NCBI GenBank assembly: GCA_025993875.1
Contig: JAMQHH010000013.1
Span: 95,744 to 159,743 of the forward strand
Reading direction: 5' to 3'
Length of the DNA: 64,000 bases
Source of the DNA: Candidatus Dojkabacteria bacterium
GTDB lineage: Bacteria; Patescibacteriota; Dojkabacteria; J137
In this document: positions 5,802-24,863 of the stretch, in pieces
How the letters are laid out: every line of letters begins with the position of its first letter
Position numbering within the stretch: the stretch's first letter is position 1
Notes under the pieces: model-generated
Told to the model about the DNA's origin: nothing
Database searches by the model: none
What the model saw: the letters and a program-made list of their open reading frames with translations, nothing else
Made by a program: the position numbers and the translations under genes

Positions 5802-6782
5802 TTAAGCAGATCGAAGTAAGTTCTCCAACTCTCCTAATAAACTATCGTAAACCGCTTTATCTTCGTTATCGTAATTTTGCAACATGTCCTCTAGACGTAC
5901 AAATGTGTGATACTTTGCTGAAATACTCTCTATAAATCCAGGCAAACTGTAACCAAGATCAGTAAACCCTTCTAAATTAAGAGCTTTGTTTTTGCTATTT
6001 AAACAAAACGGATAAAATCCAAAATAGATCCAAAATTTTAGCAGTGCCAGACACCATCTCATGGAAATAGATTCTTGCTTAAAAGGATCTGTTAACTTTT
6101 TACCTTCAAAATTCGGCGGGAAAGCAGTAATGTAAGATCCAACATCTCTATCTGTACTTGTTCCTACGCTTTCCTCTTGGCCTGCTTTATTTTTAAATTT
6201 TATCTGACAAAGTCCTGGATCAATAAATACTACCTCAAATTGTGAACCACTTCTTTTGATCTGAAAATTGCTTCCTTTTAAGTCGCGTGTGGCAACGCCT
6301 TTTTTTATCATCTCAAGCACATATTTCTCTATTGCCATTAGCACTAAGTTTTTTTCTTCTTTGCTGTTAAACTGGAATCTATCGAGAGCGGTGTATTCTT
6401 TTAGATATTCTAGGGCTATACCAATCTCTTCCGGAATATCTGTCCCGGTTTCTGCTCTAACATCTGGAATAAATGTTGCTTTATCTTTAAGAGTAGGATC
6501 AAAGGTTACTATACCAATAACATTAATTGTTCTAACACTAACTTTCTCGCCTTCGACTACAGAAATATTTTGTAACAGTTTTAATGCTAACATTTCGACC
6601 TGCGCTTTTACAGAGTATTCACTTTCTGTTTGGAATTTGAATTTTCGAGGCACTTTTAAAACCAACTCCACGCCACCGGCGCTTTCTTTTAAAATATAAA
6701 ACCATGCTGAAGATCCAGCATCCGTAAACTCAACCTTAGAAATAATAAATTTCGGTGTATTCGGGAGCTCTCTAGGATTCAT
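5802..6782 (-). CDS. Atypical protein-kinase-fold protein (ePK-like catalytic loop xRDLKxxN and DFG-like IDPG). Paralog of 7227-8228
   Basis: 326 aa. ..KKGVATRDLKGSNFQIKRSGSQFEVVFIDPGL.. aligns with ePK HRDLKPxN...DFG spacing. The shared C-terminal motif MRWCLALLKFWIYFGFYPF is also in the paralog. Confidence 0.45.
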   Translation of the reverse strand: MNPRELPNTPKFIISKVEFTDAGSSAWFYILKESAGGVELVLKVPRKFKFQTESEYSVKAQVEMLALKLLQNISVVEGEKVSVRTINVIGIVTFDPTLKDKATFIPDVRAETGTDIPEEIGIALEYLKEYTALDRFQFNSKEEKNLVLMAIEKYVLEMIKKGVATRDLKGSNFQIKRSGSQFEVVFIDPGLCQIKFKNKAGQEESVGTSTDRDVGSYITAFPPNFEGKKLTDPFKQESISMRWCLALLKFWIYFGFYPFCLNSKNKALNLEGFTDLGYSLPGFIESISAKYHTFVRLEDMLQNYDNEDKAVYDSLLGELENLLRSA

Positions 6783-7065
6783 GGGATATTATTGTATTAT
6801 CAAATTCTAAAAGAATAACTTGTTTGTTTGCCATATTAAAGGCAAACTTTAGTTCAACTTTTGTTGATGGTGAAGTCTCTTTTATTTTAGGCCATTCATT
6901 TGTTACAAAAGAGATAAGCTCAAAACTTTGTTCGGGATTTTTTTCTATCAAACTTAGTAATTGTTTAAATCTGGATAGCGCCTCATCTTTATTGTGACTT
7001 TGGTTAAGCATTTCTAAGCATTCTTTTATTACAGCATATCTCTTTAGTTCAGGTCTTTGAGGCAT
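6772..7065 (-). CDS. Hypothetical small protein (97 aa), overlaps the start of the downstream kinase-fold gene by 11 nt
   Basis: ORF geometry only. Confidence 0.3.
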   Translation of the reverse strand: MPQRPELKRYAVIKECLEMLNQSHNKDEALSRFKQLLSLIEKNPEQSFELISFVTNEWPKIKETSPSTKVELKFAFNMANKQVILLEFDNTIISHES

Positions 7066-18659: not shown

Positions 18660-18992
18660 TTAAAATTCCAAATCTCCTAAATCGTCAAAATCAGTTGCCG
18701 GTTCGAGGCTTTTTAAAAGAACATCAATCTCGTTTAAGGAAGAATTTATATCGCTAACTTCTTCTTTATTACTGTATTGAAAATCGTCGGGGCTAAGATC
18801 GTTAAAATCGTCTTCAGGCTTTAAATTAAAATTGTTTATGTCGGTTTCTATAGCAGAAATCTCCGATTGCTTTATAGGTTCTTTCTTAGTTATAAAAACA
18901 ATAGCTATTGCAAAAAAAATAATAGCAGCAACCAGTAAAATCAAAATAACCAAAAATTTAATTTTCATATTTTTCTTAATCTTAAATAACAA
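18660..18992 (-). CDS. Hypothetical N-terminally membrane-anchored acidic protein
   Basis: 110 aa. N-terminal TM, D/E-rich tail. Confidence 0.3.
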   Translation of the reverse strand: MLFKIKKNMKIKFLVILILLVAAIIFFAIAIVFITKKEPIKQSEISAIETDINNFNLKPEDDFNDLSPDDFQYSNKEEVSDINSSLNEIDVLLKSLEPATDFDDLGDLEF

Positions 18993-19857: not shown

Positions 19858-20670
19858 TTATAATGGGCTTTTAATATTTTTTAATTTCGGATTGGTTACT
19901 TGTGTGTAGAGTTGCGTTGTACGGATATTACTGTGTCCGAGCAACTCCTGCACATAGCGAACATCAGTTCCGTTTTCCAGCAAATGCGTGGCAAAAGAAT
20001 GTCTAAGTGAATGAAAAGTTGCATCTTTTTTTACGCCCGAATCTCTCAACGCATTTTCAAAAACTTTCTGTGCTGTTCGTGTTGTCAACTTTCCGCCCCT
20101 TTCACTTGCAAAAACAAAATCGTTTCCTGCCTTCCCAGCAACTAAATTCTTCAAACTATCGGCCAAACTTTCGGGCACTACGCTTATTCGGTCTTTTTGG
20201 TCTTTTGCCTGTTTAATATGCACGGTTAATTCTTCAAAATCTAAATCTTGTACTTTTAGAGATACAACTTCACTTACCCGTAGTCCTGCTCCATAAGCGA
20301 GCGATATCAGCAGTTTATGCTTTGCATTTTTGAGCGATCCTAAAATTTTCCCGACTTCGCTTCGTGATAAAACAGTAGGTAAGCTCTTTGGTTTTTTAGC
20401 TGATTGAATTTCAATTTTTTGGTAATCTTTTCGCACATTACGGTAGTAAAACTTGATAGCACTCAAAAACAGATTTCTGCTCCCCGGAGAAATGTGTTTT
20501 TTTTCACAATTCAGCAAAAAATTACGAATATCTTCCTGATCAAGTTTTGTAAAATCATCATCTTTAAAAGAAAAATATTCTCGCAAGCCATAAAGGTAGC
20601 TTTTTATAGTTTGGGAGCTGAAATTTTTGATTTTTAGTTCGCGCTTAGTTTTATTAAGCTCTGTTTGCAT
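19858..20670 (-). CDS. Tyrosine recombinase (phage-integrase/Xer family), small form
   Basis: C-terminal catalytic region HSLRHSFATHLLENGTDVRYVQELLGHSNIRTTQLYTQV (R-H-R-Y constellation, nucleophilic Tyr in LYTQV). N-terminal SAM-like core-binding domain. 270 aa. Lies 66 nt from the tRNA-Ser 3' end. Confidence 0.85.
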   Translation of the reverse strand: MQTELNKTKRELKIKNFSSQTIKSYLYGLREYFSFKDDDFTKLDQEDIRNFLLNCEKKHISPGSRNLFLSAIKFYYRNVRKDYQKIEIQSAKKPKSLPTVLSRSEVGKILGSLKNAKHKLLISLAYGAGLRVSEVVSLKVQDLDFEELTVHIKQAKDQKDRISVVPESLADSLKNLVAGKAGNDFVFASERGGKLTTRTAQKVFENALRDSGVKKDATFHSLRHSFATHLLENGTDVRYVQELLGHSNIRTTQLYTQVTNPKLKNIKSPL

Positions 20671-20844
20671 AAATGTTTAAAATTTTTTATTATTAGTATA
20701 GTTTTTATACGATTTAAACTTATCATAATCTCGTATAATATACAAGTTTAGATTTAAATTATGAAAACATATCGCATAAAAACGAGTTATACGACATTTG
20801 AAAAAACAAACAATTTTAAATACTTAGCAATTTAAACTACTAAT

Positions 20845-21222
20845 ATGGGCAGTTTCATAGAAATAAACGACACATTACAAATATCTAAAGAACAAGGTTT
20901 TCCAGAAGTCTTGAATTATGAACAGCATAAAGCAAAGCCATTTACCGCTGATGATTTCAAAGATAAAATTTTTGAGTTCAAAGATAAACCAAAAGTTAGA
21001 ATCTATAAATTACCGCCTGTTCGTAATTTCCTTGTTCAAAATATTGATGGTAAATGGCTTTACTGGGGACTTGTCCATGTCATTGAAGTTGTTCACGACA
21101 ACATTAAGCAGACGACTTCTGGAAAATTCAAAATAATTTACATTTATACTCCCGAAGAAATGAAACATGCCCATAAGATGATAGATAGAAACAAAGATAC
21201 TGATTTTCTAAAAGTAATGTAG
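20845..21222 (+). CDS. Hypothetical protein
   Basis: 125 aa, no recognised motif. Confidence 0.3.
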   Translation: MGSFIEINDTLQISKEQGFPEVLNYEQHKAKPFTADDFKDKIFEFKDKPKVRIYKLPPVRNFLVQNIDGKWLYWGLVHVIEVVHDNIKQTTSGKFKIIYIYTPEEMKHAHKMIDRNKDTDFLKVM

Positions 21223-21491
21223 TTTAAATTGCTAAAATAATAATGAAGTTTGTTTTTTCAAACGCTAAAGGGGACGCTGCGCTTTCGCTTCACTGCGTTA
21301 CGCTCACCCTCGTATAACACAGTATATCTGGTTCGCCCCTCGGCTCGGGGCTCACCCATATTTTGCTCCAACTATTAAAATGATAAAATAAGGATGGAGC
21401 AAAACATCAGATATACTGAAACGTTATGTGTAATCCATTTTTGCCCTTATCTTTAAGAAAGTCTTTTATACTTAACTAATCTTTAATTAGT

Positions 21492-22043
21492 ATGAAAAAG
21501 AAATGTATAATAATTCACGGATGTCCTTCAAATTCCGATGATCCAACTTACAATAAACATTGGATTCCTTGGGCTAAAAAACAACTTATTGCAAATGGAA
21601 TTGAAACGGAAACTCCAATAATGCCTTCTCCTTGGCAACCTGACTATGACAAATTCAAATCAGAATTTGAAAAAATGAATGTTAATGAAAATACTATTTT
21701 GGTAGGTCATAGTTGCGGTTGTGCATTTTTAGTTCGTTGGCTTGGTGAAACTAAAACCAAAATTTTCAAACTTATTCTTGTTGCTCCTTGGAAAGTAAAT
21801 GATGAGGGAGATAGTTTTAGAGAAAAATTTTACACTTATGATATTGATAAAACTATCTCGGATAGAGCAACAAAAATTATTATGTTTACTGCTGATGACG
21901 AAGACCCTGAAGGGAAAGAAAGTTTGAAAATTTTTCACAATGCACTTGGCGGAGAAATTATCGAACTAAAAAGTCGAGGGCATTATACCCAAGGCGATAT
22001 GGGAACTGAGGAGTTTCCTGAATTAGTAAAACAAATTCTGTAA
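21492..22043 (+). CDS. Putative serine hydrolase of the YdeN/RBBP9-like alpha/beta-hydrolase family
   Basis: 183 aa. Nucleophile elbow ILVGHSCGC (GHSxG). Size and layout fit the small YdeN-type esterases. Confidence 0.55.
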   Translation: MKKKCIIIHGCPSNSDDPTYNKHWIPWAKKQLIANGIETETPIMPSPWQPDYDKFKSEFEKMNVNENTILVGHSCGCAFLVRWLGETKTKIFKLILVAPWKVNDEGDSFREKFYTYDIDKTISDRATKIIMFTADDEDPEGKESLKIFHNALGGEIIELKSRGHYTQGDMGTEEFPELVKQIL

Positions 22044-22747
22044 TAAGTTTGGCATCCGTGAATGACGAACTGGGCAAAAATGGACTTCTTCGCTTCGCTC
22101 CGAAAACGATTTATTATAAATTGAATAAATAAGAGAAATACTTATATAATAGAAATAACTGACATCATTATGAAAAATATAATAAAAGCGATAGAAAATT
22201 CATTACAGAACAAGAACTGGTATTCCGCCCTTGTTTTGTCTGTTAGAAGCTGAAAGATAAGCCGGTAAAGTATCCAATCCACAAGGGTCGCCTCTCTCGC
22301 AAGATAACAAATGAGTGCCGCGTAAAAGGCTGTATGGCTTACTTATTCGAAGTTTTTCTCAAAGAACGTTCAAGATTATCCTCAAAATATCAATTACCGG
22401 AAAGTAGCCAAGTGGAAGAAGGAGAGCAATATTTGATAACCGAGTGTCCAAGATAACGTCTACGTTTTATAGCTTTTAATAGCTCAATGCTTTATAATTA
22501 TGATAGTACTACACTTTTAAATAGAAGGTCACAAGTTTTGCAAAATATGATACCAGTATATAGGATGCTGTAACAATCTAAAAAGGAGATTAAAGCAACA
22601 TAACGGAGGGGAAAATGAATCAACAAAAAGATTTATACCATGGGAACTGGTATGTTACAAAGAGGTAGAAGAAAGAGAGGAAGCATACAAAGAGGAAAAG
22701 TTGGTAAAATCGTATAAGGGAGGAAACGCATTAAAAAAGATAATTAA

Positions 22748-22836
22748 AGGAGAGGTACCCAAGTGGTTGAAGGGGCGGGTTTGCTAAACCCGTAGTACAC
22801 GCAAGTGTAGCCGGGGTTCGAATCCCCGTCTCTCCG
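22748..22836 (+). tRNA. tRNA-Ser (anticodon GCU), class II
   Basis: GGAGAGGTACCCAAGTGGTTGAAGGGGCGGGTTTGCTAAACCCG...GGGGTTCGAATCCCCGTCTCTCCG. Anticodon loop TTGCTAA. Long variable arm. Confidence 0.85.
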
Positions 22837-22860
22837 AGCTTTTTGTGCAGAAAACTTAAA

Positions 22861-22932
22861 GCAGATGTAGTTCAATTGGTAGAACGCTTCCTTGCCAAGG
22901 AAGAGGTTGCGAGTTCGAGCCTCGTCATCTGC
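22861..22932 (+). tRNA. tRNA-Gly (anticodon GCC)
   Basis: GCAGATGTAGTTCAATTGGTAGAACGCTTCCTTGCCAAGGAAGAGGTTGCGAGTTCGAGCCTCGTCATCTGCT. Clean cloverleaf. Confidence 0.9.
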
Positions 22933-22954
22933 TAATAATCGTAGATAATATTCT

Positions 22955-23045
22955 GAGTTCATTCAATTGGTAGAACGTCTCGAAGCCATAACATGGCTTC
23001 TCGTGCCGCGGAAGAGGTTGCGAGTTCGAGGCTCGCCTGCCTGCC
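22955..23045 (+). pseudogene. tRNA-Gly-like degenerate copy. D-arm and T-arm are conserved, the anticodon region is replaced by about 30 nt, and the acceptor stem does not pair
   Basis: Shares TTCAATTGGTAGAACG and GGAAGAGGTTGCGAGTTCGAG with the adjacent tRNA-Gly. Between them lies TCTCGAAGCCATAACATGGCTTCTCGTGCCGC. I could not form a 7-bp acceptor stem. Confidence 0.35.
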
Positions 23046-23096
23046 GGAATGAAATGATCGTTGACAACCAAATTCCATTCCCTACTTTTTTTTTCG
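23044..23096 (+). terminator. Rho-independent terminator closing the tRNA cluster
   Basis: Hairpin CCGGAATGAAATG...AATTCCATTCC followed by CTAC and a T9 run. The T-run overlaps the KKK C-terminal codons of the convergent ligase gene. Confidence 0.5.
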
Positions 23097-24863
23097 TAAT
23101 TCGTACATTCTAATTATCTCTTTTACGGTGGTTGGTAGAAGTTTATCTCTCTTCCATTTCTTTAATCGCGGAAATCTTATAGATAGCCCTTTTACAGAAT
23201 TTTCGTCGTCAAATCCCGTTTTTATCCCAATAGCTGCTGTATGGGCAGGACTACGTGTAATTTCGTCGGCAATAATTTCGGCAATAATTTTGGGTTCTAT
23301 CCAGGTATCGGGGTATAACTGCTTATTCACAACAAAAATTTCTGGAATCTCTTTGACTTTAATTTCAAGTTTTCTCATATCGGTCAGCATGGTTTTCATC
23401 TCTTCTTCTTTAAATCCACTTCCTACTTTTCCAATACTGTAATACTTACCGTCATCTTCATTGAAGACGCCAACAAGTAAAGCTCCAAAACCAAACTGTG
23501 CTCTATCTCCTTTACCTCCATAAAACCCCATAACGGCAACATCAATTGTATCTACCATCTCAGCTTTTGCGTTGGCTTTTAATTTTATCCATTTAAAATT
23601 GCGGGTTCCTGGCTCGTAAATACTTTCACTGTCTTTTATAATTATTCCCTCTAACCCAGACTTGATATTTTTTAGGTAATACTCTTCCAGTTCTTCCGCT
23701 GTGGTTATCTCTTTCGTTTCGAGTATCTTTATGTTTTTTAGGTCTCCCTTTAAAATCTCATGTAATTTTTTTAATCGCTCTTTTAATTTAACAGATGTTA
23801 AATCTTCGCCGTTTAAATATAAAATATCGAAACACATTGCACATACTGGAATTGATTCCGCATGACCGGTAATTTCGTGCTTTCTTTTTCTTTTCATTGT
23901 TTCCTGGTATGTTCTATATTTATCCTGTTCAAAATTGAATCCGATAATTTCAGAATCTAAAATAATTGATTCTATATTAAGACTTTTAAGTTCTAAACAG
24001 ATCTCGGGAAATTGCATAGTCATCTCTTCCATATTTCTGGAAAAAATTTTAGCAATCCCGTTTTTAAAATGTAACTGCCCTCTAAGCCCATCCAATTTGG
24101 GTTGGACAATAGGGTTTGGCAGTCTTTCCCAAGACTTTTGTGAATCCAGCTCTCTTTCGACAAGTTTGGACGCAACGGGTGCAAATGGAGTTATTTCCAT
24201 CTTTTGAAATGATGTCAATAATTCCTCTTTGGAAAGAGTTTTTACCTGTTTGGCAATAAAACCAATGTCCGGCCTTTTACCATATGCCTTATCAAAAATC
24301 TCTCGAATAGATTTGTCTCCTGTTACATACCACGAAAACGCATCTAACAATGTTTTATCACTTAAGCCCAACCTTATGTTACCCTCAATAATTCTTGTAA
24401 CAAACTTAGCACTAAGGGAATCCAGCTTTTGTAAAAGTGCAATATATAGATTAATTTTTTGTTCTACCGATCCTTTGCCAGTACAATTTGCGATCTCTTC
24501 TAATTTTGAAAACACATCCCTTATGGTTAAATCCGCAGAGATGTTTTCCTTTATCAATTCCTCTGCAACAAGCCCGCAATCGCCCTTCTCCAGATAAAGC
24601 TTTTCAACTATGTTTTTTTCACCCGACAAAGGGTTTAAAAAGTCCAGGCGTAAGCTTAATGATCTTAGAATAAGCTTTTTAGAAAAATTAAACTCCAGTG
24701 GAACAAAAAGTGGAGCCAGTCTTCCTGTTAAAAGATATACGGCTTTCTCTATCTCATCTGAGTCGAGCTTTTTAATAAGCTCGGTCATTAGATAAGTCAT
24801 TTCTAACCTTTTAGGTGTGTTTTCTATTTTTTGCAAAAATTGGGCGAATTCGAAAAATTTCAT
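23082..24863 (-). CDS. ATP-dependent DNA ligase (Lig1/LigB-like)
   Basis: Adenylation motif I KLDGLRGQ (KxDGxR). OB and adenylation domain layout. 593 aa. Confidence 0.85.
   Translation of the reverse strand: MKFFEFAQFLQKIENTPKRLEMTYLMTELIKKLDSDEIEKAVYLLTGRLAPLFVPLEFNFSKKLILRSLSLRLDFLNPLSGEKNIVEKLYLEKGDCGLVAEELIKENISADLTIRDVFSKLEEIANCTGKGSVEQKINLYIALLQKLDSLSAKFVTRIIEGNIRLGLSDKTLLDAFSWYVTGDKSIREIFDKAYGKRPDIGFIAKQVKTLSKEELLTSFQKMEITPFAPVASKLVERELDSQKSWERLPNPIVQPKLDGLRGQLHFKNGIAKIFSRNMEEMTMQFPEICLELKSLNIESIILDSEIIGFNFEQDKYRTYQETMKRKRKHEITGHAESIPVCAMCFDILYLNGEDLTSVKLKERLKKLHEILKGDLKNIKILETKEITTAEELEEYYLKNIKSGLEGIIIKDSESIYEPGTRNFKWIKLKANAKAEMVDTIDVAVMGFYGGKGDRAQFGFGALLVGVFNEDDGKYYSIGKVGSGFKEEEMKTMLTDMRKLEIKVKEIPEIFVVNKQLYPDTWIEPKIIAEIIADEITRSPAHTAAIGIKTGFDDENSVKGLSIRFPRLKKWKRDKLLPTTVKEIIRMYELRKKK

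Follow-up and report, generated by a model that had tools for sequence, protein, structure and literature searches.

In the tyrT operon of E. coli, partial tRNA-derived repeats (rtT RNA, RF00391) are found in the transcribed 3' trailer, upstream of the terminator. These repeats were made by local duplication, and ~19 nt of the tRNA 3' end is contained within units of 178 bp. The tRNA-Gly(GCC)-like element that we describe here, from a Dojkabacteria contig, is similar to them in being derived from a tRNA and in lying in the trailer of a tRNA operon ahead of a terminator. There is no sequence relationship between the two, and with a cut-off as loose as E<=10 the Rfam scan of the region reported no match to RF00391.

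Partial (non-canonical) tRNA gene fragments are common in prokaryotes, where they originate mostly via the integration of mobile elements (van der Gulik et al. 2023, PMC9897764). The fragments catalogued in that work are either the result of integration, with the copies at opposite ends of an element of 9-23 kb, or CRISPR spacers. The Dojkabacteria element shares with them the incomplete copy of a resident tRNA, a recognisable T-arm, the lack of a full cloverleaf, and a position near mobile or variable DNA, and it is a new instance of this already known kind of tRNA gene fragment. It differs from the catalogued cases in that only ~20 nt, with no intervening element, separate the two copies, the D-arm is included in the copy, and the copy is interrupted by an insertion.

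Bacterial tRNA introns are group I ribozymes of ~200 nt, and those known from some tRNA genes of Patescibacteria interrupt position 35/36 (Nakagawa et al. 2026, PMC13011429). These genes and our element belong to the same phylum, have an interrupted anticodon region, and are missed by standard tRNA finders. Unlike the element, the intron-containing tRNAs possess complete acceptor stems and a self-splicing ribozyme of ~200 nt (RF00028).

A comparable arrangement is found in Aeromonas media FiBL-01 (NZ_CP050794.1, L024), where an array of seven tRNA-Gly(GCC) genes in tandem precedes two units of 125 nt (6689-6914), each of them containing one 5'-truncated tRNA-Gly copy with an insertion at the junction of the D-arm and the anticodon stem; neither is called by ARAGORN. 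The locus came up as a chance match, among the matches listed, when genome contigs were scanned for the pattern GGTAGARC-N28-56-GCGRGTTCGAG, and the other matches listed were chance occurrences in high-GC coding DNA. As in our element, the Aeromonas copies lie on the same strand behind a functional tRNA-Gly(GCC), are truncated at the 5' end, escape ARAGORN, keep the D-loop with the 3' strand of the D-stem and the part from the anticodon to the 3' end, and have extra nucleotides between the D-arm and the anticodon stem. However, their 7-nt anticodon loop is intact, their 3' acceptor strand and CCA are retained, and they come as two near-identical units after seven genes, while the Dojkabacteria element is a single copy, behind a single gene, and more damaged. 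The Aeromonas array thus indicates that decayed terminal copies behind tRNA-Gly genes occur elsewhere, and the comparison of both cases hints that tRNA-Gly(GCC) loci may repeatedly shed 5'-truncated copies downstream.

Another tRNA-shaped sequence that is not called by ARAGORN lies between tRNA-Glu and tRNA-Ser in an Acetatifactor sp. MAG (L079, ~6247-6335). Its acceptor stem of 7 bp (GTGCCCG/CGGGCAC) is good, D- and T-arms are present, and in place of the anticodon arm there is an aberrant region of ~40 nt.

Anatomy of the locus

The window, that is, the whole 64-kb stretch of DNA that was analysed, has a G+C content of ~33%. ARAGORN identifies five tRNAs in it, and the element is not among them. 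The arrangement around the element is as follows.

22487-22745, + strand: GIY-YIG nuclease pseudogene with two in-frame stops, reaching tRNA-Ser(GCT)
22749-22836, + strand: tRNA-Ser(GCT), the first gene of a small tRNA cluster (ARAGORN; Rfam RF00005, 55.2 bits)
22860-22934, + strand: genuine tRNA-Gly(GCC), the parent copy (ARAGORN; Rfam, 70.7 bits; fold z = -4.05)
22935-22957, + strand: spacer separating the parent gene from the element (aligned locally, with shuffles and genomic windows as controls)
22958-23045, + strand: tRNA-Gly(GCC)-like element, ~20 nt behind the parent gene
23046-23094, + strand: weak terminator-like hairpin and T9 run, GGAATGAAAT...ATTCCATTCC, with arms made of 5-nt repeats
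23082-24863, - strand: convergent gene for an ATP-dependent DNA ligase (Pfam; tblastx against the relatives L124 and L126)

The element itself can be divided into these parts.

22958-22965, + strand: TTCA-TTCA micro-duplication at the 5' boundary of homology, the proposed duplication junction
22962-22977, + strand: D-arm copy, 16/16 against the parent, including a D-loop A where related tRNA-Gly genes have G
22978-22996, + strand: insertion of ~19 nt between tRNA positions 26 and 27 (global alignment of both copies)
22982-23000, + strand: perfect 8-bp hairpin GAAGCCAT-AAC-ATGGCTTC (-10.8 kcal/mol, z = -5.5)
22997-23014, + strand: anticodon-arm remnant, CTTCT, 8-nt loop CGTGCCGC, GGAAG, with U33-GCC kept
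23015-23036, + strand: variable region and T-arm, GCGAG-TTCGAGG-CTCGC
23037-23045, + strand: 3' acceptor-strand remnant with a CTGC-CTGC micro-duplication and no complementary 5' strand

The preliminary description, made from the sequence by eye, had recognised here a second tRNA-Gly(GCC)-like copy that keeps the D-arm and the variable region and T-arm, and both parts are indeed identical to the parent gene. The D-arm block TTCAATTGGTAGAACG (22962-22977) corresponds to parent positions 22871-22886 over 16/16 nt, and the block GGAAGAGGTTGCGAGTTCGAG (23010-23030), formed by the parent's 3' anticodon-stem strand, the variable region, and the 5' portion of the T-arm, corresponds to 22899-22919 over 21/21 nt. 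The 15-mer GGTTGCGAGTTCGAG has exactly 2 occurrences in the 64 kb, compared to 0.47 expected per shuffle (<=3 mismatches), so the match between the blocks is not due to chance. In a gapped global alignment, the element is homologous to positions 10-72 of tRNA-Gly, with 56/61 columns identical and four indels. It is 5'-truncated, with the 5' acceptor strand of the parent missing; CCA is not encoded in the parent gene.

Both a D-arm (TTC-AATTGGTA-GAA) and a T-arm with their conserved loop residues are present in the element, and its T-arm is the only T-arm-shaped hairpin of the window outside the called tRNAs. Only two changes separate the T-arm segment from that of the parent, a C to G in the T-loop and a G-U pair that became G-C. 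A T-arm-like site at 18693 was discarded as a chance match, with 3 mismatches and flanks that are not tRNA-like.

The central region is the most altered. Between the identical blocks there are 32 nt in the element and 12 nt in the parent, with different sequences. The earlier suggestion that this segment replaces the anticodon stem-loop holds in that the sequence is not that of the parent, but the arm appears interrupted rather than replaced, as CTTCT/GGAAG and U33-GCC remain. CTTCT (22997-23001) can still pair with GGAAG (23010-23014), with one extra base in the anticodon loop compared to the parent. The AAGCC/GGCTT hairpin that had been noticed in this segment also exists, although its actual stem is the perfect 8-bp helix listed above, closed by a loop of AAC. 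This hairpin combines the insertion with the former 5' strand of the anticodon stem. Its 3' arm extends into what is left of that stem, and it competes with the CTTCT/GGAAG stem for the same 5' strand. There are ~17 distinct hairpins of this kind in the 64 kb, and no further copy of the hairpin segment was found in the window.

Short tandem micro-duplications are very dense at this locus, with 4 in 139 nt (22947-23085). None of the 6,327 control windows had four or more (0/6,327), and 0.55% had three or more. Such a dense set of micro-duplications is a signature of slippage.

The region behind the element had been described as a good terminator. We found a weak one, as the A/U-rich hairpin (23046-23081) has a 16-nt loop, a folding energy of -6.5 kcal/mol, and a z of -0.5, and it was not called in a consensus terminator scan. 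The T9 run (23086-23094) falls within the final codons of the ligase gene, which is convergent. At the 5' end of the element, TTCATTC (22958-22964) is complementary over 7 bp to GAATGAA (23047-23053), a pairing that was seen in both the low-threshold ARAGORN output and the fold. The spacer AATAATCGTAGATAA matches the trailer behind the element (23052-23066) at 12/15 positions (p ~0.07-0.10), and AATAATCGTAGATAA ... TTCATTC runs collinear with AATGATCGTTGACAA ... TTCCATTCC in that trailer. This is suggestive of a weak homology between the trailers behind both copies, at a p value that is not significant alone. A collinear homology would explain the TTCATTC/GAATGAA complementarity, as TTCATTC would be a copy of the 3' arm of the terminator and GAATGAA its 5' arm.

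Comparison with tRNAs and other known RNAs

The element is not a tRNA and has no tRNA fold. ARAGORN did not call it at the default threshold, in either default or intron mode, so the ARAGORN check that had been proposed for this locus gave no tRNA and no prediction with a normal cloverleaf. At lowered thresholds, ARAGORN returned mutually overlapping junk calls on both strands. The Rfam tRNA model (RF00005, threshold of 29 bits) had no match in 22955-23046 even at E<=10. The unpaired acceptor stem of the preliminary description was confirmed, since the complement needed to form a 7-bp stem with the 3' strand CTGCCTG(CCGG) is absent nearby, the sole perfect match in the window being the site itself. 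As for the anticodon arm, the search for a 5-bp stem with a 7-nt loop gave, as its best register, CTTCT/GGAAG with the 8-nt loop CGTGCCGC.

We also removed 0-60 nt from the element, with starts from 22960 to 23019, and rescanned the resulting 2,880 constructs with ARAGORN. A single construct was called (1/2,880), and this "tRNA-Glu" is spurious, with mismatches in its acceptor stem and without a real D-arm. The group I intron core (RF00028) is absent from the window, while the same model does detect the introns of Patescibacteria tRNA-Asp genes.

Among other RNA families, no tmRNA was found on the element by the tmRNA mode of ARAGORN or the Rfam tmRNA models, and neither YrlA (RF02553) nor mascRNA had a match on it. 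A weak YrlA match (RF02553, 14.8 bits against a threshold of 69) falls at 22811-22885, on the true tRNAs. The whole element folds no more stably than shuffled sequence (z = -0.6 to -1.7), while the z of tRNA-Gly is -4.05.

Distribution and genomic context

The same sequence was recovered, base for base, in contigs from at least 8 public datasets, including an NCBI metagenome assembly. The samples behind SRR35674853, SRR23459708, SRR25316601, SRR28483939, SRR30015097, and GCA_013328915.1 are among those that contain the organism. As these contigs were independently assembled, the element is real DNA and not a chimeric assembly artefact. Every recovered copy was identical, and other members of the ligase cluster gave only identical copies. 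In the overlapping contigs, the surrounding intergenic DNA, loaded with pseudogenes, is equally invariant, with the exception of two variants (L172 and L177). The population thus seems to be near-clonal and, with the flanks equally invariant, the identity of the element across samples says nothing about constraint.

Outside this population, a pattern specific for the element with its insertion had 0 matches in the JGI metagenomes. The 21-mer shared with the parent was found there in 40 loci, all of them single copy and without a tandem second copy. Most of these loci are tRNA-Asp genes of Patescibacteria; the four that are tRNA-Gly(GCC) genes match the gene in the window except for a D-loop G instead of A. 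None of these four related genes is followed by a second copy. The element carries the same D-loop A as its adjacent parent (TTCAATTGG), which points to its origin from this neighbour within the lineage. No match to the element was found in the viral, phage, and plasmid collections.

About half of the tRNA-Asp(GTC) genes of Patescibacteria matched by the 21-mer (among loci L129-L168) have group I introns in the anticodon loop (RF00028, 67-99 bits), for example, at 3260-3456 in L153 and 5312-5504 in L134. The phenomenon has already been published (PMC13011429).

Two further genes upstream are relevant to the context.

19858-20670: tyrosine recombinase (XerC/D-like), 270 aa, 66 nt downstream of tRNA-Ser(CGA)
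21492-22043, + strand: Ser_hydrolase (PF06821), 70-92% identical to proteins of Patescibacteria and DPANN

On the downstream side, the genes for CTP synthase, phosphoglycerate mutase, and ligase form a block that is shared in synteny with the two relatives L124 and L126, whose ligases are 89% and 62% identical. The species with the 89% identical ligase comes from runs SRR12072164 and SRR12072161, and homologues of the ligase, like those of the hydrolase listed above, bear names of Candidatus Dojkabacteria, a CPR/Patescibacteria lineage. By tblastx, synteny with both relatives stops exactly at the ligase stop codon (23082). Behind the ligase, neither relative has tRNAs, and other genes are found there. 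The preliminary description had asked for an alignment with the homologous locus in relatives; among the loci recovered, the element is missing behind the four tRNA-Gly genes related to the parent and also next to the ligase of both relatives. The positions concerned in the relatives are 3756-4188 in L124 and 7795-10537 in L126. In L124, the next gene, read by eye, resembles an IS200/RayT-type transposase and contains a run of 15-nt tandem repeats. As synteny anchors, the ligase recovered no relative in the genome contig collection, and the GIY-YIG remnant gave a single distant match.

Upstream of the tRNA cluster, a stretch of ~700 nt (22044-22748), which includes the GIY-YIG pseudogene, contains no intact ORF. 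Before it lies the Ser_hydrolase gene. Its homologues are labelled as Dojkabacteria, other Patescibacteria, and DPANN archaea (Woesearchaeota, Pacearchaeota, and Nanoarchaeota) and sit in unrelated gene neighbourhoods, a pattern that suggests horizontal transfer of unusual recency and breadth between bacteria and archaea that live as episymbionts. The gene was dropped as a synteny anchor, as it is horizontally mobile and its contexts are unrelated. The tyrosine recombinase and tRNA-Ser(CGA) are 2.3 kb upstream of the element region, and in the strain variants L176 and L177, genes for a Mrr-type nuclease or an SDR lie between the integrase and the hydrolase. Considering the pseudogene stretch, the variable gene content, and the end of synteny together, the element is located at a rearrangement breakpoint in a decaying and variable stretch.

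Two other observations were made in this region. When 19.8-22.7 kb is considered as an integrated island, the only candidate direct repeat is the generic likeness between the 3' ends of two tRNA-Ser genes. In addition, a 125-aa ORF with no Pfam match (20845-21222) lies within 20797-21262, flanked by 44-nt inverted repeats that are 80% complementary; ORF and repeats may constitute a small mobile cassette.

Origin of the element

In our view, the element is probably a pseudogene without function, left by a partial tandem duplication of the adjacent tRNA-Gly(GCC) that is specific to this lineage. A pseudogene produced by a duplication or an att-site event was one of the readings first proposed, and its duplication form fits a copy that is 5'-truncated, on the same strand, and ~20 nt behind its parent. 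The evidence behind this form is the D-loop A shared with the parent, the insertions and micro-duplications, and the absence from related loci. The decaying and variable surroundings, the fold at the level of shuffled sequence, and the Aeromonas array also speak for it.

The ancestral locus would have consisted of tRNA-Ser, tRNA-Gly, and a trailer with a terminator. A local duplication of the unit that extends from tRNA position 10, in the D-stem, to the end of the trailer would have had its junction at the TTCA microhomology between the 3' arm of the terminator and the D-stem. The upstream copy would have retained the 5' acceptor strand and remained a working tRNA, and the downstream copy would have been without this strand from the start. 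The latter would then have acquired the palindromic insertion of ~19 nt at 26/27 and a few substitutions in the anticodon loop. Slippage would have produced the short duplications CTGC-CTGC and AATGA-AATGA with ATTCC-ATTCC. Most of the differences would correspond to a few complex indel events and not to gradual point mutation, and the recency of the event would account for D- and T-arm blocks that still equal those of the parent.

With tRNA-Gly on one side and the only terminator-like site on the other, the element is probably transcribed in the 3' trailer of the operon. The trailer RNA with the element would be cut away during 3' maturation of tRNA-Gly and then degraded. With no acceptor stem, RNase P processing, CCA addition, and aminoacylation would not be possible.

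A tandem copy predicts a collinear alignment of the trailers, of which there is a suggestion here (12/15; TTCATTC against TTCCATTCC) at a level that is not significant alone. Against a duplication, the differences are unevenly distributed, with blocks of 16 and 21 nt free of substitutions and a trailer that is ~80% alike over its best 15 nt. As both changes in the T-arm preserve the hairpin, selection on an RNA that forms the elbow, or gene conversion, could account for this pattern rather than recency.

The att-site form of the pseudogene reading would require that a mobile element with an attP that carried tRNA-Gly positions 10-76 integrated here, leaving a complete copy and a 5'-truncated one, and that its body was later lost imprecisely. 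We regard this as unlikely. More of the known tRNA gene fragments derive from integration than from any other source (PMC9897764), and the element is placed exactly at the synteny breakpoint, in a strain-variable neighbourhood with a horizontally mobile hydrolase and a GIY-YIG pseudogene, with the tyrosine recombinase beside tRNA-Ser(CGA) at 2.3 kb upstream. However, the ~20 nt between the copies contain nothing intervening, and the integrase is outside the interval and adjoins a different tRNA. Two events are required, an integration followed by a near-total and imprecise deletion. Repeats left by integration are normally one contiguous block, and this copy is interrupted and includes the D-arm. 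Furthermore, no viral, phage, or plasmid sequence carries the element, there is no attP match, and the weak homology of the trailers would be unexpected.

Very unlikely, in our opinion, is a functional tRNA-like small RNA, co-transcribed with the tRNAs, that keeps the D-loop/T-loop elbow and has lost the acceptor and anticodon functions. Such an RNA might act as a decoy or ligand for a partner that recognises the elbow, or the pairing of TTCATTC with GAATGAA, as an alternative to the terminator hairpin, might work as a read-through switch. In its favour, identity is complete over the D-arm block (16/16) and the block of variable region and T-arm (21/21) while everything else changed, the two T-arm substitutions preserve the structure, chance would hardly place a perfect 8-bp hairpin precisely here, the 7-bp pairing overlaps the 5' arm of the terminator, and the sequence is invariant in at least 8 datasets. 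However, this invariance reflects a near-clonal population, and the searches of metagenome, viral, phage, and plasmid collections gave no homologue. The overall fold is at the level of shuffled sequence (z = -0.6 to -1.7), and none of the Rfam families matches, YrlA, mascRNA, and tmRNA among them. Read-through would yield only antisense RNA of the ligase gene, and the competing pairing is accounted for as a by-product of the duplication. A tRNA-like structural RNA had also been among the first proposals; with a fold at z = -0.6 against shuffled sequence, nothing in our results speaks for it. A more specific version, slightly more doubtful still, is an elbow mimic without acceptor in which the new hairpin takes the place of the anticodon arm and which is freed from the operon trailer as a functional small RNA. 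Its possible roles would be to titrate or guide an elbow-recognising protein or RNA, or to modulate termination where the operon ends.

Last, a tRNA with a small non-canonical intron, as had also been proposed, or a split or permuted tRNA that takes its acceptor strand from elsewhere is effectively excluded: tRNA introns missed by standard tools do exist in Patescibacteria (PMC13011429) and U33-GCC and the CTTCT/GGAAG stem survive behind the insertion, but there is no acceptor stem, none of the 2,880 deletions of 0-60 nt gives a credible tRNA, the anticodon loop still has 8 nt once the insertion is removed, there is no group I core of the type known from Patescibacteria tRNAs (ribozymes of ~200 nt, position 35/36), and a genuine tRNA-Gly(GCC) is ~20 nt upstream. 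The split and permuted forms were ruled out because nothing in the neighbourhood is complementary to the 3' strand and no partner for it exists in the window.

If the RNA were stably expressed, the element would be a candidate tRNA-mimic regulator. Under the preferred reading, that of a partial tandem duplicate, the correct label for it is a tRNA-Gly(GCC) fragment or pseudogene, and it should be annotated neither as a tRNA, with or without an intron, nor as a new RNA gene. Its evolutionary interest is minor, as a small scar of duplication and slippage in a very reduced CPR genome, located at a rearrangement breakpoint.
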